From assembly GCA_903888395.1 (NCBI GenBank), contig CAISTO010000257.1, positions 1 to 33,076 of the forward strand: a DNA stretch of 33,076 nt. Reading direction: 5' to 3'. The translations under genes and the position numbers were made by a program. Origin of the DNA: an uncultured Bacteroidota bacterium (GTDB taxonomy: Bacteria > Bacteroidota > Bacteroidia > UKL13-3). The notes below the pieces were generated by a model. The model was not told where the DNA came from, ran no database searches, and saw only the letters and a list, made by a program, of their open reading frames with translations. Positions 12,675 through 31,027 of this stretch are shown one piece after another (position 1 is the stretch's first letter; each line of letters starts with the position of its first letter).

Positions 12675-14792
12675 ATGAAAAAATACCTATTACTTACTTT
12701 CACATTGATCTCCATTGGCTTATTTCAAAGCCACAAAATGGATGAAGGCATGTTTCCTTTATCGGAACTTAAAAACATTAACTTAAAAAAGGTTGGACTA
12801 AAAATAAAACCCATAGAATTATACAATCCAAATGGTGTAAGTATCATTGATGCCATTGTAAGAGTTGGTGGTTGTACAGGTAGTTTTGTGAGCAATGATG
12901 GATTAATTGTTACCAATCATCATTGTGCTTTTAGTTTTGTAGCTGCCATTAGCGACACGGTAAACGATTATATTAAAAAAGGTTATTTGGCCAGAACACA
13001 TGAGCAAGAAGCACCTGCTAAAGGTTTAGTTTGTAAAATAGCTGCAAGCTACGAAGACGTTTCGGTAAAAGTATTGCAAGGCACCCAAACCATCAGCGAT
13101 GCTGCCGAAAGATTGAAAACAATTGCTACTCATTTAAAAGCAATTACTGATGCTGAAAGCAAAGCAAATCCTACTTTAAGTTGCGAAATTTCTGAAATGT
13201 TTACCGGTAGAACTTATGTGCTTTTCCGTTATAAATTATTAAAAGATGTTCGTTTGGTTTATGTACCTGCACGCAGTATTGGCGAGTATGGTGGTGAAAA
13301 AGACAATTGGGTTTGGCCTCGCCATAGTGGCGATTTTGCTTTTTTAAGAGCATACGTTTCGCCCGATGGAAGTGCTGCTGAATACTCACTTAAAAATGTG
13401 CCTTATAAACCTGCAAAACATTTAGTAATTAACCAAAAAGGGGTAAACGAAAATGATTTTGTTTTTGTGTTAGGTTATCCAGGTAGAACATACCGCCACC
13501 AACCTGCAGCGTTTTATAAATACCATGAAAAATACATGCTTCAATACATTAGTAATATATACGATTGGCAAATAGAGGAAATGGAAAAACTGAGTAAAGG
13601 CAATCAGACGTTGGCTATAAAATATGCTTCAAGAATTAAACAATTAGCCAATACCACTAAGAATTTTAAAGGTAAATTACAAGGATTTAGAAGAACAGGT
13701 TTAACCAATAAAAAATACAATGACGAAGCTTTGTTGCAAGATTTTTTAAGTAAAGATGAAACTTTAAAAGCTACTTATAGCAATGTAATTCCTAGAATAA
13801 ATGTGCTATATGACGATATTTTAAAATTTGCACCTCGTAATTTATGGTACGATCAAATTTATAATGTAACACCTATGTTTTCAATGGCTGGTGCCATTGA
13901 TAATTATAAAAATGCGTATGCTCTTTTGAAATCAGATGCTGAAAGAACAGATTTTAAACTCAAACAAGGATTGCGTTTAAAGCAATTATTAGCAACTGCA
14001 TTTAGCAAATACGATGAACCTTTTGAAATAGCAGCTTTCAAAAAAATGCAAGCAGATGCTGCCACATTTAATAAAAATAACCAAGTAGATGCATTTGCCA
14101 AAAATATCAACGCAGATGAAATTTACAGCAAAACTATTTTTAAAGATACCAAAATGATTGAAAAATTAGCCAATGAAGACATTGAAAAGCTTTTTGCTTT
14201 GCAAGATCCTTTGCTTGATTTGGCAGCTAATTTAAATTTAGAAATCAATTTCTTTGATCAAGAAGATCAAAAACGTGAGGCGGAGTTGAACGCTTTAATG
14301 GCAAAATATGTAGATGCAAAATCGGTATTCCAAAACAAAAGTTTTGTACCTGATGCCAATGCAACTTTGCGTTTTACTTATGGTTATGTTAAAGGATACT
14401 CGCCCAACGATGCCGAATACCATGGTCCATTTACCACTTTGCGTGGTGTGGTAGAAAAAGAAGATGGCGTGGATTATGAATTAATGCCATTGATTAAAGA
14501 GTTGTATGCTGCAAAAGATTTTGGCGATTTGATGAAACCAAGTTTGGGCGATTTGCCTGTAAACTTTTTATATAATCTAGATACCACTGGTGGCAATAGC
14601 GGAAGTCCAGTTATGAACGCAAAAGGTGAATTAGTAGGTATTAATTTTGACCGTGCTTATACTGCTACCATTAACGATTATGCTTGGAACGAAAGTTACA
14701 GTAGGAGCGTGGCCGTAGACATTCGTTATGTTCTTTGGGTACTACAAAAAGTAGCCAAAGCCGATGAATTGAGTAAGGAGTTGAGTAATTAA
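12675..14792 (+). CDS. S46 family dipeptidyl peptidase (DPP11-like)
   Basis: 'DEGMF', 'GGCTGSFVS', catalytic His 'TNHHC', Asp 'RHSGDF', Ser 'TTGGNSGSPV', followed by 'GINFDR'. Confidence 0.93.
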   Translation: MKKYLLLTFTLISIGLFQSHKMDEGMFPLSELKNINLKKVGLKIKPIELYNPNGVSIIDAIVRVGGCTGSFVSNDGLIVTNHHCAFSFVAAISDTVNDYIKKGYLARTHEQEAPAKGLVCKIAASYEDVSVKVLQGTQTISDAAERLKTIATHLKAITDAESKANPTLSCEISEMFTGRTYVLFRYKLLKDVRLVYVPARSIGEYGGEKDNWVWPRHSGDFAFLRAYVSPDGSAAEYSLKNVPYKPAKHLVINQKGVNENDFVFVLGYPGRTYRHQPAAFYKYHEKYMLQYISNIYDWQIEEMEKLSKGNQTLAIKYASRIKQLANTTKNFKGKLQGFRRTGLTNKKYNDEALLQDFLSKDETLKATYSNVIPRINVLYDDILKFAPRNLWYDQIYNVTPMFSMAGAIDNYKNAYALLKSDAERTDFKLKQGLRLKQLLATAFSKYDEPFEIAAFKKMQADAATFNKNNQVDAFAKNINADEIYSKTIFKDTKMIEKLANEDIEKLFALQDPLLDLAANLNLEINFFDQEDQKREAELNALMAKYVDAKSVFQNKSFVPDANATLRFTYGYVKGYSPNDAEYHGPFTTLRGVVEKEDGVDYELMPLIKELYAAKDFGDLMKPSLGDLPVNFLYNLDTTGGNSGSPVMNAKGELVGINFDRAYTATINDYAWNESYSRSVAVDIRYVLWVLQKVAKADELSKELSN

Positions 14793-14827: not shown

Positions 14828-14862
14828 TAAACCTGACAGGTCTTGAAGACCTGTCAGGTTTA
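14828..14862. repeat. REP-like palindrome related to those at the RAYT locus
   Basis: taaacctgacaggtctt-g-aagacctgtcaggttta: perfect 17-bp arms sharing the ACCTGACAGGT core with 27671, 28102 and 28432. Confidence 0.85.
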
Positions 14863-15081: not shown

Positions 15082-16497
15082 TTAATGATCAGTTAGTAAC
15101 AATTCATTTAAAAAAGTGGGATATACTTGCTCCCAAAATTTATTCAGCATGTTGTTATAAGCATCTTTGCTGGCATTTTCGGGCGTTAACTGAAATCCTT
15201 TGATATCTTTTAAGGCATCTTTATATATTTCTTGGTTGTTTTTAACATCTACAATACTAATGTTCATGTTAATATTTGCTTGCAGCATTTTACCCCACAT
15301 CACTCCTAAATCTATGGTATTTGCGATTACTTTAATTTCATAATCAGCATTTTTTCTATCTGTAACAAAATTACAACCGCTTTCTACTAATTTGCGTTTG
15401 AGTTGTGGTTCAATGATATTAAACTCTAAGTTTTTACTTAAAATTTGTTCTTTACAATTGGTATAAATTTTTATAGGTTCTACTGATAATCTAAAATTAG
15501 TACTTGGTGCATCTATATTGGTTAAAATGCTTTTTAGCAATCCGTTTAAACTATCACTTTTAATAATCGTAGCAATGTCAACTATAATTTTTACTTGCTG
15601 AATCGGGTCTTTGGCTTGAATTCTATTCAATGAAAAAGTAGCAATACCATTTTGGTCGGTTTCGGCACTATTGCCAAAATCAAATTTGGCTTGTGTGGCT
15701 TTTAAAGTTAAGGGAACAAAAGGAACAAAACTATTGTTTTCCTGCAATCTTACGGTAGCTGTAAATGGATTATTAATGGGTTTTCCAATTTTGCCTTTTA
15801 GTTCTACCACTTCAGTTTTTACTTGTAATTTGTATAATTGGTTTTGAATTTGACTCACAATTTCATTCACCAAATACACTTCATTTCCTTTGTAAACTGT
15901 AGCCACATCTTCATTCAAATAATTTTGTAATGCGCTTAATGCTTTGATTCGCAAACGCATCATTTGCATGTAATTATTTTGATAATTAAGTCGATCGGCA
16001 TTATCCAAAAAGTTAAGCGATTGCTCAATGGCAGCTTGTAATTTTCTGCGTTTGGCAGCTTCATATTCAGCTTTTGAAAGTTTGTAATAAATATAAAAAT
16101 CCGATTTGTTTTCCCAGCTGTCTACTACCTCAAAATCTTCTACCATGGCCTGCGCCATTACTTTAGTATCGGTAGCAAACATTTGGTTCAATACATTATT
16201 ATTTTGATTAAGCGAAAGTATAGAATTAGAAGAAACTACCACTTTTATTTCACCAATTAAGTCGTTTAAGGCACGCTTTTTTGCCATGGCTTGGTAATCG
16301 GCCGGATTTAACATTTTATTGGCATAGCCAACACCTACATAAAAATTATTATTTACAGGCCTTTGTTGCACCCAATCGGGCTGCTTACTCCTGTCTTTTC
16401 TGTTAATTCCGTTGTTTGTTGTGCCGCACGAAACCAATATTATTATTAAGAATAATGGGAATAGAATTTTTGATTTTATAAATGTATTTTTAAACAT
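15082..16497 (-). CDS. LPP20-like lipoprotein
   Basis: Lipobox 'LVSC', 'QPDWV...FYVGVG...AKKRALNDLIGEIKVVVSS' typical of an LPP20 N-terminus. ATG 16497 is preferred over TTG 16521. Confidence 0.7.
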   Translation of the reverse strand: MFKNTFIKSKILFPLFLIIILVSCGTTNNGINRKDRSKQPDWVQQRPVNNNFYVGVGYANKMLNPADYQAMAKKRALNDLIGEIKVVVSSNSILSLNQNNNVLNQMFATDTKVMAQAMVEDFEVVDSWENKSDFYIYYKLSKAEYEAAKRRKLQAAIEQSLNFLDNADRLNYQNNYMQMMRLRIKALSALQNYLNEDVATVYKGNEVYLVNEIVSQIQNQLYKLQVKTEVVELKGKIGKPINNPFTATVRLQENNSFVPFVPLTLKATQAKFDFGNSAETDQNGIATFSLNRIQAKDPIQQVKIIVDIATIIKSDSLNGLLKSILTNIDAPSTNFRLSVEPIKIYTNCKEQILSKNLEFNIIEPQLKRKLVESGCNFVTDRKNADYEIKVIANTIDLGVMWGKMLQANINMNISIVDVKNNQEIYKDALKDIKGFQLTPENASKDAYNNMLNKFWEQVYPTFLNELLLTDH

Positions 16498-16714
16498 GGA
16501 GCTATTTTCAGTATTAATCAAACATTATTCAAACTTTGTACCACTAAATTTGATGCTGATAAAGTTCGAAATTATCATTTGTTTTATTAAAAACAATAAA
16601 ACGAATTCCGTAATTTTAAATTAATTAATTTATGCTTCAAAATTTAACCCCTAATTATCATTTTCATTTACGAATTGCAATTGCTATTTTGCAACCTGAA
16701 AAAAGTACAATATT

Positions 16715-25870: not shown

Positions 25871-27652
25871 TTACTCAATTTTATTTACCTTCAATTTATT
25901 GCGGTAACTAGAAAAAATACTTGATTTTGATACAAAACCAACATATTTACCATTTTTAATTACTGGTAAATTCCATGCGCCTGTTTCATCAAAAAGTTTC
26001 ATCACATTTTCCATACTTTCATTTTCAATGATTATTGCAGGAGCATTCGTCATTAAGTCGCTAACAAATACATTGTCGTAAAGCTCAGTTTTGAACATAA
26101 TTTCTCTAATATTATCTAATAAAATAACGCCAAGAAGCTTGTATTCATTATCAATAACAGGGAAAATATTTCGCTTAGATTTAGCAATTAACTCCACCAT
26201 ATTTCCTAAACTATTGGTAGAATAAATGGTTTGAAAATTAGTTTCTATTAAGTTAGAAGTAGAGATGGTAGCCAATATATTTTGGTCTTTATCGTTGGTA
26301 AAAACATCGCCACTCATGGCCAACTTTTTTACATCCATTGAATAAGGTTCAAAATATTTTGAAATGGCAAAACTGATGGAAGAAACAATCATTAAAGGAA
26401 TCATTAAGTTATAACCACCGGTAATTTCAGCAATTAAAAATATAGCCGTTAATGGAGCATGATATATTCCACTTAAAATTCCTGCCATCCCTACTAAAGT
26501 AAAATTGCTAATGGGTAAATTTGTTAAATTGAGCAGATTTAAAACTTTTGAAAAAAAGTATCCTAAATAAGCTCCCACAAATAACGAAGGCGCGAAATTT
26601 CCCCCATTTCCTCCACTTCCCAAAGTAATGGCGGTAGCTATTGATTTTAAAAAAATCAACATACCAACTGCTGCCAAAACCAACCATTCATTGTTTTGAT
26701 AATTGTGAAAAATACTTCCATCTAAAATATTTTCTGGTTGCAACATTGAAAGCGATTTGATACTTTGATATCCTTCACCAAAAAGTGATGGAAAAATAAA
26801 AATAAGTGCTGCCAGTAATATTCCGCCAATAATTACATTTAAATAAACTTTACTTTTTCTTCTGCTAAAAAGTGCTTCTATTTTCGAAAAAGTGCGAGAG
26901 TGATAAACAGAAATTAAGCCCGCAAATATTCCAAGTATTATATAAAAAGGAACGTTATTATAGTCAAATGGCTGCTGAAGTTGAAATGATAAAAGTATAT
27001 CATCTTGTAAAATTATTTTAGAAATCAATGCGCCAGTTGCTGCCGCAATAATGAGTGGTGTAAAAGCAGAAATACTAATATCAACCAAAAGTACTTCTAA
27101 AGCAAATAAAACACCTGCAATTGGAGCGTTAAAAGTGGCTCCAATTCCTGCGGCTATTCCACATGCTAAAAGTAAAGTTCGCTCATTATAACTTAGTTTA
27201 TATGTTTTTGCATAGTTACTTCCAAAAGCCGCACCTGTAATTACAATTGGCGCTTCTAATCCTGCCGATCCTCCAAAGCCAACCGTTAAAGAACTTGTTA
27301 AAACCTGCGCAAACATTTGCTCTTTTGGCATAAAACTCGATTTTTTAGCTATTCCATAATGTATGTGTGAAAGTCCTTTTTCGATTTTTCCTTTCAGTAA
27401 TTTTTTCACAATATAAACCGTTAAAAAAATGCCAATAATGGGTAAAAAAAGAAATAAATATTTATAGTTTCCTAGCTCTTTGTAGGTAGCCGCTAAATAT
27501 ATAAAATGAACAGCTGTTTTTAAAACAATGGCAGCCAAACCAACCGTTAATCCAACCAACACACTCGATAAAAGTATGAATTGCTTAGCGGAAAGTCGAT
27601 TTTGAATCCATTTTATTACAGATTGTAATTTTTGAACAAGTGTAAATTTCAT
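25871..27652 (-). CDS. ClC family chloride channel/transporter with tandem CBS domains
   Basis: 'GGSAGLEAP', 'FNAPIAGVLFALE', 'GGNFAP', 'APLTAIFLIAEITG' and two C-terminal CBS domains. Confidence 0.93.
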   Translation of the reverse strand: MKFTLVQKLQSVIKWIQNRLSAKQFILLSSVLVGLTVGLAAIVLKTAVHFIYLAATYKELGNYKYLFLFLPIIGIFLTVYIVKKLLKGKIEKGLSHIHYGIAKKSSFMPKEQMFAQVLTSSLTVGFGGSAGLEAPIVITGAAFGSNYAKTYKLSYNERTLLLACGIAAGIGATFNAPIAGVLFALEVLLVDISISAFTPLIIAAATGALISKIILQDDILLSFQLQQPFDYNNVPFYIILGIFAGLISVYHSRTFSKIEALFSRRKSKVYLNVIIGGILLAALIFIFPSLFGEGYQSIKSLSMLQPENILDGSIFHNYQNNEWLVLAAVGMLIFLKSIATAITLGSGGNGGNFAPSLFVGAYLGYFFSKVLNLLNLTNLPISNFTLVGMAGILSGIYHAPLTAIFLIAEITGGYNLMIPLMIVSSISFAISKYFEPYSMDVKKLAMSGDVFTNDKDQNILATISTSNLIETNFQTIYSTNSLGNMVELIAKSKRNIFPVIDNEYKLLGVILLDNIREIMFKTELYDNVFVSDLMTNAPAIIIENESMENVMKLFDETGAWNLPVIKNGKYVGFVSKSSIFSSYRNKLKVNKIE

Positions 27653-27670
27653 GTTTTTATTTTTGCTATC

Positions 27671-27703
27671 AGACCTGACAGGTTTTTAAAACCTGTCAGG
27701 TCT
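27671..27703. repeat. REP palindrome downstream of RAYT
   Basis: agacctgacaggtttt-t-aaaacctgtcaggtct: perfect 16-bp arms, 10 nt beyond the RAYT stop. Confidence 0.92.
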
Positions 27704-27713
27704 TTCGTTACGT

Positions 27714-28415
27714 TTAATATTCAATAGTTAAATGGTTGAGGTTTTCTTCACTATGAATTGATCTATGAAACTTTTCATATTCATTCTTACTTCCAAACCA
27801 TTCCATTACTTGGTGTTTGGATAGTTTACTTGATTTATTGGACATATGTCCATGGTATGATGAGTGAGCATAATCTTTAAAATCATTTACAAATCCATGC
27901 TTTTGTGGATTGAAATGTATGTACCAAATTAGTTGGGTAAAATATGTTTCCGAATTAACCAGTTTTCTTTTAAAAGGTGTTTCAAAAAGGCCACCGGTTC
28001 TACTTTGAGATTTATTTATACTTTTGGTGTAAGAGTTAAACAAATCAGAAAATTTTTTACTAACTAATCTATCTGGTGAGTGTAAACCTTTATTTGCATA
28101 TAGACCTGACAGGTTTTTAAAACCTGTCAGGTCTTTGCTGTTTTTAAAACTTGTCAGGTCATCGCTACTTTTAAAATTTGTTAGGTCCTCGTTAATCTCA
28201 AAACCAGACATTTCTTTTACTCGTACCAATAAATGAAAATGATTTCCTAACAAACAATACGCAAATGTCTCCAAAACTTCATCCATATAAAAAGAGTATT
28301 TTTGTAAGAAATACAAATAATTCCTTTCCTCAAAAAACAAATTAGTTCCATTTATACCTCTATTGTATATATGATAATACTTTCCTAGTTCTAATGGGCT
28401 TTCATTTGTTTTCAT
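27714..28415 (-). CDS. REP-associated tyrosine transposase (RAYT / IS200-like Y1 HUH nuclease)
   Basis: 'YYHIYNRG', HUH motif 'YCLLGNHFHLL', 'RTGGLF', catalytic-Tyr region 'YIHFNPQKHG' and 'SSY'. Flanked by palindromes; no TnpB partner. Confidence 0.88.
   Translation of the reverse strand: MKTNESPLELGKYYHIYNRGINGTNLFFEERNYLYFLQKYSFYMDEVLETFAYCLLGNHFHLLVRVKEMSGFEINEDLTNFKSSDDLTSFKNSKDLTGFKNLSGLYANKGLHSPDRLVSKKFSDLFNSYTKSINKSQSRTGGLFETPFKRKLVNSETYFTQLIWYIHFNPQKHGFVNDFKDYAHSSYHGHMSNKSSKLSKHQVMEWFGSKNEYEKFHRSIHSEENLNHLTIEY
28102..28214. repeat. Intragenic REP palindrome plus in-frame 27-bp tandem half-repeats
   Basis: Full palindrome 28102-28134 is identical to 27671-27703. Units start at 28114, 28141, 28168 and (degenerate) 28195, encoding 'KEMSGFEIN-EDLTNFKSS-DDLTSFKNS-KDLTGFKNL-SGL'. 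Confidence 0.9.
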
Positions 28416-28431
28416 GTTTTTTCTGTTTATC

Positions 28432-28521
28432 AGACCTGACAGGTTTTAAAAACCTGTCAGGTCTTTGTATTTTAAAACCTGTCAGGTCTTTGTATTTAAA
28501 ACCTGTCAGGTCTTTGTATCT
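28432..28521. repeat. REP palindrome plus tandem half-repeats upstream of RAYT
   Basis: Palindrome 28432-28464 (centre a), with aaaacctgtcaggtctttgtat units at 28449, 28474 and 28498 (25/24/24 bp) running into the upstream gene's stop codon. Confidence 0.92.
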
Positions 28522-31027
28522 AAAACTTCATTTGTAACCTCACATTCAATCTGCGAGATGTTAAATAGTTTGGAACTGCCCAAGTTTGTGCTGTGGCGTC
28601 TTGTAGCCAGGTATAACTAATGGTATTGTCAACGCCTAACATATTAAATACTTCCACAGCAATATTTGCATATTTGATATTTTTTTTAAAGAAAGTATTT
28701 CTTTGTTTTGGCTTTAAATTGATGGCTATTAAATCTTTTGTAAAACCAATATCAACCCTGCGGTAACTAGGCATGGTATTGATATCGTTATACCTATTTT
28801 GGTCAGGAATTCCAAATGGAAAACCACTTCCATAAACTAACATTAAGTTTACTTTATAACTTGGATTGTTTGGAAAATAATCTTGAAATAATATGGCAAA
28901 TTGTAATGCTTGATTGGTTAAACGAGGAATGAATCTTTCAGTTTCTAAAACTCCCGCTTTAGTATATTGACCACTAATTATTTCTTGTGTGTTCATTAAA
29001 CTTAAACTTGCCCAACTTTCAGTTCCACGAACAAATTCTCCATTTACCCTTAAGTCTATACCAGTGGCGTACCCACGTGATATATTATCAGCAAAATAAC
29101 GAATGCGAACATTGTCAATTTCATAAGGAATGAGGTTACTTAAATCTTTATAATAAGCTTCTGCAGTAAATTTAAATGGTCGGTTCCAAGCTTTAAAATT
29201 CATTTCAGCACCTAATACATAATGAATAGATTTTTGCGATTTAATATTGGAATTTAAAGTGCCATCAAAGCCACGTAATTCTCTATAAAAAGGTGTTTGA
29301 TAATACCAACCATAAGATGCTTTTATAATCCAATTTTTGCGCATTTTACTGCTCCAATTTGAATCTGTTTTATTGGTTTCAAATATTTGTTTATTGTGTT
29401 TTTTGTTGGGTTCAAATGAAAACTGAAACCTAGGACTGATAACATTTTCGTTGGTAAAACTCCACCAATTGCTGCGTATTCCGTAAGTTAAAACCATGTT
29501 GTTTTGGCTGTTTAAAACCCGAGTATTTTGAACATAAGCATTCAGTCTAAATGTATTTAATGAAATACTGGTTCTTAAATAATCCAGTAAGGTTAAATTA
29601 CCATTTGAATCCAAAGTAGGTTGCGCAAAACCCGCGCTATCTCTATAATTCCATTCCTTTAATTTGTCGTTTATATTTTCAGTTTGAACAAATGTACCCC
29701 ATTGAATATTGTTTTTCCCTTTGTTATAACTTCCTCTATGACCAATGTTTATAACAGTTGCTTCTATTCCATTTCTGGCATTATTGATAAAATAACCAAC
29801 TCCTTTTAACGATTTTGCCCTTCCAAAATTTGCACTTCCTTGATCTGTTTCTAATTCGCTTAAACGGTATGCACCTTCTATGGTAAAAAGTTCGTTTTCA
29901 TTGCTGTAAAACATGGAGCTTATCAACTTCAATTGTAACCTTCGGGTTGGATTGTATACCAAACTTGCGGCTGAAGTTGTGGTTCTATATTCCATTAAAT
30001 CAGCGCCATCAAAATATACATTTAATTGCAAAGCTTGTTTCACAGTTCCAAAAGTAGTTTGCCTATCGGTTGGCACTAAAAAATACCTATTTTGAGCATA
30101 ACTGCTCAGTATACTAAAACTTAAATCAGAACGAAGATGATAAGTTAATAAAGCTTGAACATCGGTAAATGATGGCTGATAATCGCCTTTGGTATCTAGG
30201 GTTGAAACAACATATTTATTACTCCAATATCGTGCGCCAATTAAATAGGTAAATCGTAAATTTTTACTAGCACCTTCGGTTGATGCTTGAACACCTAACA
30301 AACCAACATTTAGGGAAGATGCCGTCTTTTTAGGATCTTTATATTTAATGTCTAAAACAGAACTCATTTTATCGCCATATTTGGCTTCAAATCCTCCTGC
30401 ACTAAATTTAATACTTTTTACTAAATCAGAATGAATAAAACTTAATCCTTCTTGCTGCCCACTTCTGGGTAAAAAGGGCCTGTAAATTTCAATATCATTT
30501 ACGTAAACCAAATTTTCGTCAAAGTTTCCACCACGCACATTATACTGAGCGCTCAATTCATTATTGGATGAAACACCTGGTAACGTTTTTAAAATTTGTT
30601 CTACCCCAGGAATTGGAGTTGGATTTATACTTAATTGTTTTGCATCAATGGTAAATGAACTGATTTGTTCCCTGTATCTTTCTTCTTTTATTTCAACTGC
30701 ACTTAAAACTAAACCAATATTTAGGTTTACATTTAACTCATATTTTTCCTTTGGTTTCAATGCCGGAATGTCAAAATTTTCACCTTTACTTCCAAAATAG
30801 TTAAAGCGTAATTTTATTGCATTGTTTGCATTTACAGTTATTTTATAATAACCATTTTCATTCGTTAAGCCAACAATATTTTCATTGATAACCGATACTG
30901 TAACGCCATCCATTAATTGGCCCAAACTATCGCGAACCAAACCACTAATACTTGCTTTTTCGTTTTGGGCTATTGCAAAATTATTTGCACCAATTAAAAG
31001 CAATAAAAAACAAAAGAATCTTTGCAT
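28520..31027 (-). CDS. TonB-dependent outer-membrane receptor
   Basis: Signal peptide, carboxypeptidase-like domain, plug 'LPGVSSNNELSAQYNVRGGNFDENLVYVNDIEIYRP', 'GGFEAKYGDKMSSVLDI' and a terminal Phe. Confidence 0.92.
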   Translation of the reverse strand: MQRFFCFLLLLIGANNFAIAQNEKASISGLVRDSLGQLMDGVTVSVINENIVGLTNENGYYKITVNANNAIKLRFNYFGSKGENFDIPALKPKEKYELNVNLNIGLVLSAVEIKEERYREQISSFTIDAKQLSINPTPIPGVEQILKTLPGVSSNNELSAQYNVRGGNFDENLVYVNDIEIYRPFLPRSGQQEGLSFIHSDLVKSIKFSAGGFEAKYGDKMSSVLDIKYKDPKKTASSLNVGLLGVQASTEGASKNLRFTYLIGARYWSNKYVVSTLDTKGDYQPSFTDVQALLTYHLRSDLSFSILSSYAQNRYFLVPTDRQTTFGTVKQALQLNVYFDGADLMEYRTTTSAASLVYNPTRRLQLKLISSMFYSNENELFTIEGAYRLSELETDQGSANFGRAKSLKGVGYFINNARNGIEATVINIGHRGSYNKGKNNIQWGTFVQTENINDKLKEWNYRDSAGFAQPTLDSNGNLTLLDYLRTSISLNTFRLNAYVQNTRVLNSQNNMVLTYGIRSNWWSFTNENVISPRFQFSFEPNKKHNKQIFETNKTDSNWSSKMRKNWIIKASYGWYYQTPFYRELRGFDGTLNSNIKSQKSIHYVLGAEMNFKAWNRPFKFTAEAYYKDLSNLIPYEIDNVRIRYFADNISRGYATGIDLRVNGEFVRGTESWASLSLMNTQEIISGQYTKAGVLETERFIPRLTNQALQFAILFQDYFPNNPSYKVNLMLVYGSGFPFGIPDQNRYNDINTMPSYRRVDIGFTKDLIAINLKPKQRNTFFKKNIKYANIAVEVFNMLGVDNTISYTWLQDATAQTWAVPNYLTSRRLNVRLQMKF

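Follow-up and report, generated by a model that had tools for sequence, protein, structure and literature searches.

The window, i.e. the entire 33,076-nt stretch of DNA analysed here, was found to contain a predicted RAYT/TnpAREP-like transposase gene that carries an exact copy of its own flanking REP palindrome, in frame, within a variable loop, together with an in-frame array of decaying half-REP units. Our preferred explanation, to which a probability of roughly 0.7 is assigned as a whole, is that of a RAYT gene with the arrangement known from RAYT subclass 2.4, into whose loop a REP was transferred and whose array was subsequently extended by slippage. The features concerned are the following, with the basis for each given in brackets.

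27714-28415, minus strand: predicted RAYT/TnpAREP-like gene, 233 aa (ORF listing together with profile, model and Foldseek)
28233-28241, minus strand: HUH motif HFH, residues 59-61, H59-F-H61 (sequence reading and alignment)
27906-27923, minus strand: catalytic-tyrosine motif YIHFNP, Y165...N169-P170 (sequence reading and alignment)
28086-28214, minus strand: variable loop, residues 68-110, running from the HUH strand to the next long helix (pLDDT and homologue lengths)
28102-28134, unstranded: intragenic 33-nt REP palindrome, translated as (K)DLTGFKNLSGL (inverted repeat, hairpin energy)
28135-28214, minus strand: three decaying half-REP units with a 27-nt period, DLTSFKNSK, DLTNFKSSD and GFEINE (Tandem Repeats Finder, mismatch ladder, codon view)
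27671-27703, unstranded: downstream flanking REP palindrome (inverted repeat; hairpin -16.5 kcal/mol)
28432-28464, unstranded: upstream flanking REP palindrome with its central base flipped (inverted repeat; hairpin -16.5 kcal/mol)
28465-28526, unstranded: upstream intergenic half-REP array, period 24/25, with the same polarity as the intragenic array (Tandem Repeats Finder and spacing)

The arrangement itself had been treated as new in the first-pass annotation, although it had already been described in 2018 as characteristic of one RAYT subclass. Quentin, Siguier, Chandler and Fichant (2018, BMC Genomics 19:475; PMC6006769) described subclass 2.4 TnpAREP/RAYT proteins, equated with Bertels group 4, as possessing intragenic REPs, located in a β3-αC insertion modelled as peripheral, whose length and sequence vary strongly and in which short DNA repeats are found. 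The window gene resembles this subclass in being a HuH-Y1 gene flanked by REP hairpins, in its occurrence in Bacteroidetes and in the presence of an in-frame REP copy within the variable β3-αC insertion (PMC6006769). With respect to the subclass motifs NH[IFV]H, WQ and YIxNNP (Table 1 of PMC6006769), the NHFH of the window protein fits, its YIHFNP is one position off YIxNNP (a paralogue on contig C82 of the same genome reads YIHNNP), and the WQ position reads FE, as judged from a weak alignment to 4er8. Group 4 RAYTs were reported to have few associated repeats (Bertels et al. 2017; PMC5581495), and the cellular role of widespread RAYTs and REPs is described as unsettled (PMC6006769). The main text of PMC6006769 gives no account of unit-number polymorphism, a decay gradient, polarity or arrays outside the ORF, and a full-text literature search returned no further publication dealing with intragenic REPs of RAYTs and none on 9-aa steps, a decay gradient or outside half-REP arrays. 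New in the present analysis are the 9-aa copy-number steps, the decay gradient and a matching upstream half-REP array whose periods are not divisible by three, as well as a quantified cognate match over 154 loci and evidence of repeated gain and loss.

The assignment of the ORF at 27714-28415 as a gene for a RAYT/TnpAREP-like HUH tyrosine transposase is a prediction from sequence comparison and modelling, in which the defining catalytic features are present and curated sequence thresholds are missed. No Pfam family matched at E ≤ 0.01, nor did any related one, the Y1 transposase included, at E ≤ 10, while the NCBIfam model NF047646 (REP_Tyr_transpos) matched in two stretches split by the loop with 49 bits, short of its cutoff of 80. 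The sole match in a phmmer comparison with the PDB was E. coli TnpAREP (4er8), and this match was weak. An AlphaFold model built on 32 homologues (pLDDT 87.1, pTM 0.82) retrieved 4er8_A, TnpAREP bound to a REP hairpin, as the best Foldseek match in the PDB (E 2.1e-07, probability 1.00, TM 0.73 on the target), followed by the TnpA proteins of IS608 and ISDra2. Both an HUH motif and a single tyrosine in a Y-x3-N-P context are present (NHFH at 58-61 and YIHFNP at 165-170), the YIHFNP stretch aligns with the Y-motif region of E. coli TnpAREP, and residues N58, H59, H61, Y165, H167 and N169 do not vary across the 32 aligned homologues (A2). The initial designation of the gene as RAYT-like is upheld by these intact HUH and Tyr motifs and by the match of the model to 4ER8.

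The genome from which the window derives (G000; 484 contigs, 88% complete) contains 13 palindromic sites of the cognate REP type, ten of which lie away from the gene, so that the flanking hairpins recur elsewhere in the genome, as in a REPtron. Two further RAYT paralogues were identified in this genome, at C82:2993-3610 (L002) and C7:1453-1935 (L004), with up to 63% and up to 40% identity, respectively, in the matched stretches; the repeat families flanking them consist of ACTTTGTCAAAGT-type palindromes and of 63-nt units containing CGTCTGACG. Among C82-type paralogues, the signal of a decayed REP was suggestive in the loop of L002 (1/300 shuffles reached its score), weak in those of L009 and L020 (11 and 13/300, respectively) and absent from the C82-type loop of L011 (75/300 shuffles reached its score). 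The C82 loop may keep a decayed copy of its REP, at most as a trace. An autonomous IS200/IS605 insertion sequence, which would be expected in several copies, with different subterminal hairpins at its left and right ends and often accompanied by tnpB, was considered as an identity for the window locus and rejected, as the gene occurs as a single copy in G000, its locus holds a fixed, syntenic position in five congeners, no tnpB-like ORF adjoins it and the paralogues carry other hairpin families.

The intragenic palindrome (AGACCTGACAGGTTTTTAAAACCTGTCAGGTCT) consists of two 16-nt arms which are 100% complementary and are separated by one central base. An identical 33-mer is located downstream of the stop codon of the RAYT-like gene, which bears out the earlier claim that the palindrome within the ORF represents the REP of that same gene; the copy upstream of (5' to) the start codon differs from this 33-mer solely in its central base. 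A 13-nt arm was found to occur 13 times in the window (at up to two mismatches) against an expectation of 0.30, a number that was reached in 0/100 shuffles. As DNA, the intragenic hairpin has a folding energy of -16.8 kcal/mol (z -7.7), with all three hairpins falling between -16.5 and -16.8 kcal/mol (z -7.7 to -9.3).

Tandem Repeats Finder delimited the intragenic array at 28113-28204, with a period of 27, 2.9-3.2 copies and no indels. In register 28114, with 20 nt compared per unit, mismatches to the intact arm amounted to 0, 1, 4 and 7, followed by 15 (background 14.5 ± 2.0; 0.06% of window positions display seven mismatches or fewer), a ladder which depends on the register, slight shifts elsewhere yielding, for example, 0, 2, 4, 6. 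The in-frame 27-bp period and the series 0, 1, 4, 7 given in the first-pass annotation were thus reproduced exactly; the monotonic 1, 4, 7 ladder represents one array, which is common to the window and its orthologue L006 by descent, and is by itself not significant. In coding-strand order, the array reads (S)GFEINE / DLTNFKSSD / DLTSFKNSK / DLTGFKNLSGL, such that the degenerate left-arm copies come first and the intact palindrome last, with the HUH motif situated 5' of the array in protein order. The upstream intergenic array was delimited at 28449-28526 (period 24, 3.2 copies, 96% matches), its units being spaced by 25 and 24 nt.

Contigs from public sequencing runs cover the intragenic array and its surroundings at 28113-28461 (X1, record 5) and 28113-28459 (X4, record 19), with 0 gaps and one differing letter. 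These contigs derive from two studies, of which X1 may represent the source sample, and because both span the array ungapped, the array is not an artefact of one assembly. No 27-nt indel variant was seen in the four public runs examined, but their contigs, which break at every palindrome, would not reveal heterogeneity in unit number.

The RAYT gene was also seen to be bracketed by a direct repeat of approximately 57 nt (27647-27705 and 28410-28466, 84-88% alike). The stretches between REP and start codon are alike at the RAYT gene and at a neighbouring chloride-channel-like gene (25871-27652), and an identical 12-mer, TTTCATGTTTTT, lies over the start codons of both; the direct-repeat bracketing of the RAYT cassette is due to the similarity of these two REP-to-start stretches.

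Comparison with close relatives revealed that the loop varies in unit number. The closest database relatives (84-92% identity) have lengths of 242, 242, 233, 233, 233 and 271 aa, and orthologue core lengths of 215, 224, 233 and 242 aa were observed. In the alignment, length differences among orthologues fall in the loop and comprise whole 9-aa units, in agreement with the variation in 9-aa steps that had been anticipated. Relative to the window protein, P0001 and P0002 possess an extra DLTGFKNSE unit adjoining the palindrome, which may represent either a gain or a loss, while P0006 has one unit fewer, its additional length being due to an extended N terminus translated across the upstream REP array. 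Four orthologous loci have the same neighbouring genes as the window, and their half-units number three in L006 (as in the window), one in L113, i.e. two units fewer than in the window, and none in L007 and L021. A metagenome scan for close relatives returned L113 as the single locus with at least 79% identity.

A comparable expansion was observed outside the gene. The upstream intergenic REP of the window carries two extra tag-plus-left-arm units of 24/25 nt with the polarity of the intragenic array, and this upstream array is absent from the orthologues L006, L113 and L021. The upstream REP of L007 carries two 28-nt units that have arisen independently. The upstream units of the window lie between two 8-nt GTTTTAAA repeats, which are already 24 nt apart in the unexpanded L006. 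Contraction was recorded in L066: compared with its sister L139, it has undergone a deletion of exactly 18 nt running between two quasi-identical arms, which reduces the palindrome to one arm and DLTGFQNLSGL to DLSGL. Since each arm is palindromic in its own right (CCTGnCAGG), the two arms serve as nearly identical direct repeats. L114 and L146 bear additional right arms on the opposite side of the palindrome, and L007 also extends 3', while P0200, P0260 and P0166 contain block duplications which are not monotonic. In the cases that were dissected (the upstream array of the window, L066/L139 and L114/L146), slippage is sufficient to account for array growth.

The stem of the intragenic palindrome also varies between these loci. 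Uncompensated changes were identified in L113 (three), L007 (one) and L021 (one), and the left arm of L008 has decayed; the flanking REPs of these four loci include perfect copies. In the window and in L006, the intragenic palindrome is perfect.

In the AlphaFold model, the loop is the sole low-confidence part, with a pLDDT of 51-56 (residues 71-110) vs >90 in the core. The expectation that structure prediction would place it as a surface loop was borne out to the extent that it is modelled as a low-confidence surface segment, and the model fits a flexible segment that carries a tolerated passenger. One of the three reading frames of the palindrome is stop-free, the others being closed by TGA and TAA, and the central base likewise permits a stop-free reading in a single orientation. 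Since the half-REP arrays outside the ORF have periods of 24/25 and 28, which are not multiples of three, the intragenic 27-nt period is best read as the survivor of frame selection, and the frame filter suggested by the first-pass annotation is thus plausible. Across loci, repeat periods that are a multiple of three were obtained for 15/16 repeats in loops vs 53/94 in flanks, a comparison which is contaminated by palindromes scoring as period 9 or 18, because palindrome arms behave as near-identical direct repeats, and in which only periods >18 are informative and available for few loci.

The correspondence between loop and REP was then assessed across the family. A total of 192 loci was collected, of which 182 had gene models (obtained by tblastn anchoring), representing 172 distinct proteins; 154 loci were kept after omission of 10 without a gene model, 10 exact protein duplicates and 18 with short flanks or with loops shorter than 10 aa. 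An exact word of at least 14 nt was common to the loop (mean length 81 nt) and its own 300-nt flanks in 53/154 loci, a lower bound given that many loci scored as negative still show REP-like loop peptides. By the same criterion, the rest of the gene (mean length 549 nt) shared such a word with the flanks in 2/154 loci, one of these being a 59-nt duplication. The longest word shared by the loop averaged 12.8 nt for cognate flanks vs 8.8 nt for 30 random non-cognate flanks. The rest of the same gene and this non-cognate mean served as controls; the non-cognate maximum was discarded as a control, since it reached 37 nt owing to the many loci that have the same REP type.

More than ten distinct stem sequences were represented among the loop/flank matches. 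Locus L016 possesses a different flanking palindrome, with core TTTCCGAAAG, and the same palindrome was present in its loop, where it is read as SAFRKFETFGKL; the loops of L013 and L028 likewise contain the CCCTGACAGGG variants of these loci, and L056 has an intragenic arm variant that differs from its flanking REP. The predicted match between the loop and a relative's own REP therefore persists where the REP sequence differs, as in L016 and among the 53/154 loci. Where the palindrome could be delimited, its centre was in codon phase 0 in 33/46 cases and in other phases in 13/46. On a tree of the 154 genes built without the loop, the loop-copy trait required at least 28 state changes, compared with 44.3 ± 2.7 for shuffled labels (500 shuffles, minimum 36), which is evidence for repeated gain and loss of the REP loop copy. 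Whole clades were found to have short, REP-free loops.

The wider family comprises 12,138 clusters at E up to 0.001. Within it, P0166, P0176, P0200 and P0260 have loops of 120-172 aa with four to six tandem REP-like peptide units, some of them arranged in higher-order blocks, and P0166 reaches 390 aa. Each of the loops of L092, L177 and L173 contains two REP-type palindromes in a different reading frame (NPDRFEKPCQV, DPSGFSKPDGV); hairpins of this type have therefore entered the loop in different codon phases across lineages. RAYT-type relatives outside the Bacteroidota (L036-L112) were encountered in MAGs labelled Anaerolineae/Chloroflexi, Thiomargarita, Ignavibacteriaceae and Balneolaceae, a spread that fits the patchy distribution reported for the family.

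On the basis of these observations, we infer the following course of events. The copy of the gene's own REP hairpin that sits in frame in the variable loop, and is translated there as a flexible surface segment, would have reached the loop, and be renewed in it, by DNA-level transfer from surrounding REPs, either through insertion or through conversion. Copies would survive solely in the single frame and orientation devoid of stops, and the encoded peptide would be neutral, so that the loop copy would then decay as ordinary loop sequence. The 27-nt array corresponds to the tag, left arm and part of the loop of the hairpin, tandemly duplicated 5' of the palindrome, and its gain and loss of whole 9-aa units would most likely proceed through slipped-strand mispairing or unequal exchange between short direct repeats supplied by the hairpin. 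As a component of the intact hairpin, the unit nearest the palindrome would remain fresh. Slippage within a disordered loop is accordingly regarded as the most likely cause of the array.

In G000, tight half-REP arrays (24-28 nt) occur at 2/3 RAYT-associated palindromes vs 0/10 palindromes elsewhere, and in five congeners (G016, G018, G010, G001 and G006; 16-25 arm matches per genome at up to one mismatch) a single non-RAYT half-REP array was detected, an 18-nt case on G001:C37. In G016, 3/4 perfect palindromes lie at the RAYT locus. The near-confinement of half-REP arrays to RAYT loci, based on small counts from kin genomes, hints at a local, enzyme-linked process, and it counts against pure slippage because slippage alone does not predict it.

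Such confinement agrees with self-targeting by the enzyme, as proposed in the first-pass annotation: the RAYT protein would act preferentially in cis, nicking and rejoining single-stranded DNA at the hairpins inside and beside its own gene, with each event adding a tag-plus-left-arm unit beside the palindrome and the array thereby constituting a time-ordered record of activity. This explanation is considered unlikely, even though several observations agree with it: the HUH and Tyr motifs are intact, the newest-looking unit adjoins the palindrome both in the window ladder and in P0001/P0002, the upstream array and, independently, L007 share the polarity and unit make-up of the intragenic array, and the tiny REP family is concentrated at the gene (as in G016), consistent with local action. 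However, neither a cleavage site nor a strand-transfer junction was identified at the arrays, and the pre-existing 8-nt direct repeats account for the junctions found in the upstream array. Extension on the 3' side in L114, L146 and L007, together with the non-monotonic blocks of P0200, P0260 and P0166, departs from one-ended growth, the 18-nt collapse in L066 is a classical direct-repeat deletion, and the published texts that were retrieved contain no biochemistry for this subclass. An extended version, in which the RAYT acts mainly in cis, each cycle adds a unit to a growing and decaying in-frame ledger, and the longer loop and cleavable hairpin possibly provide negative feedback, is less probable still; if true, REP-RAYT turnover would be readable directly from sequence.

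Ranking below even that version is the possibility, also raised in the first-pass annotation, that the intragenic REP is a selected regulatory hairpin, bound by the RAYT protein as mRNA or single-stranded DNA and limiting its own expression or activity, with the REP match reflecting co-evolution of enzyme and site. The hairpin is indeed strong, both as DNA (-16.8 kcal/mol) and as RNA, for which a 141-nt intragenic context folds with -39.7 vs -21.6 ± 3.3 kcal/mol in shuffles. Over many REP types, the sequence of the loop copy tracks that of the cognate REP, the palindrome of the window and L006 is perfect, and coupled C>T / G>A changes leave the stem of the L013 loop copy intact, although paired changes can also come from the copying of a variant REP. 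Against this, the uncompensated stem changes in L113, L007 and L021 and the decayed arm of L008 occur next to perfect flanking REPs, 101/154 family members are without a loop copy by the 14-nt criterion (several of these still with REP-like peptides), whole clades have only short REP-free loops and the C82 paralogue keeps at most a decayed trace. Stem decay, and the lack of a loop copy in so many members, speak against an essential regulatory function of the site. An assembly or gene-calling artefact, in which repeats were misassembled and the gene is really interrupted, can practically be dismissed: although the assembly is fragmented (484 contigs, 88% complete) and the Logan contigs of four public runs break at each palindrome, contigs of two studies span 28113-28460 without gaps, which disposes of the artefact raised in the first-pass annotation, and the same architecture, with the frame open in all, recurs in the independent genomes or metagenomes of L006, L113 and P0001-P0006.

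Transfer of a REP followed by slippage, i.e. the preferred explanation, can be set beside several known systems. Coding minisatellites and contingency-type repeats gain and lose units in frame by slippage, and their end units are more degenerate. The window array differs from these in being seeded by a transposase target hairpin and in that no phase-variable phenotype is indicated. E. coli TnpAREP (YafM/RayT, REP/BIME, PDB 4ER8) shares the fold, the HUH and Tyr-x3-N-P chemistry and the hairpin-flanked gene, but has 14% identity to the window protein and lacks a REP inside its gene. The REP family of E. coli is high-copy and possesses a GTAG tag (PMC3733652), whereas approximately 13 palindromes per genome are present here. 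Translation of REPs inside other genes was described by Di Nocera et al. (2013; PMC3733652), and Rickettsia palindromic elements (Ogata et al., cited in PMC3733652) are likewise palindromic repeats that occur in frame in protein genes and are tolerated in loops, with RPE/REP clusters inside genes encoding 20-82 aa (PMC3733652). The hosts of Rickettsia palindromic elements are unrelated housekeeping genes, while the host in the present case is a transposase thought to act on the repeat.

A RAYT gene with its own target in a tolerant loop represents a natural reporter of the rate and locality of REP renewal, both of which can be read from its copy-number steps, its decay gradient and the agreement of loop and flanks. 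The lake Bacteroidota lineage analysed here offers a compact case and, because its close relatives differ by single units, is suited to a comparison of slippage with enzyme-driven growth.

Two minor observations were made on related sequences. A variant REP with swapped stem ends, AACCTGACAGGTCTTGAAGACCTGTCAGGTT, is located at 14830-14860 of the window, between the convergent ORFs 12675-14792 (plus strand) and 15082-16521 (minus strand); when read in frame, it yields NLTGLEDLSGL, a peptide which is present in the loops of the more distant RAYTs P0011, P0014 and P0018. Contigs from a metatranscriptome library (run X17), in which DNA carry-over is possible, match 27868-28039 and 28128-28359 with no differences, and a second X17 contig, covering 28169-28359 with 17 differences, is indicative of a related strain.
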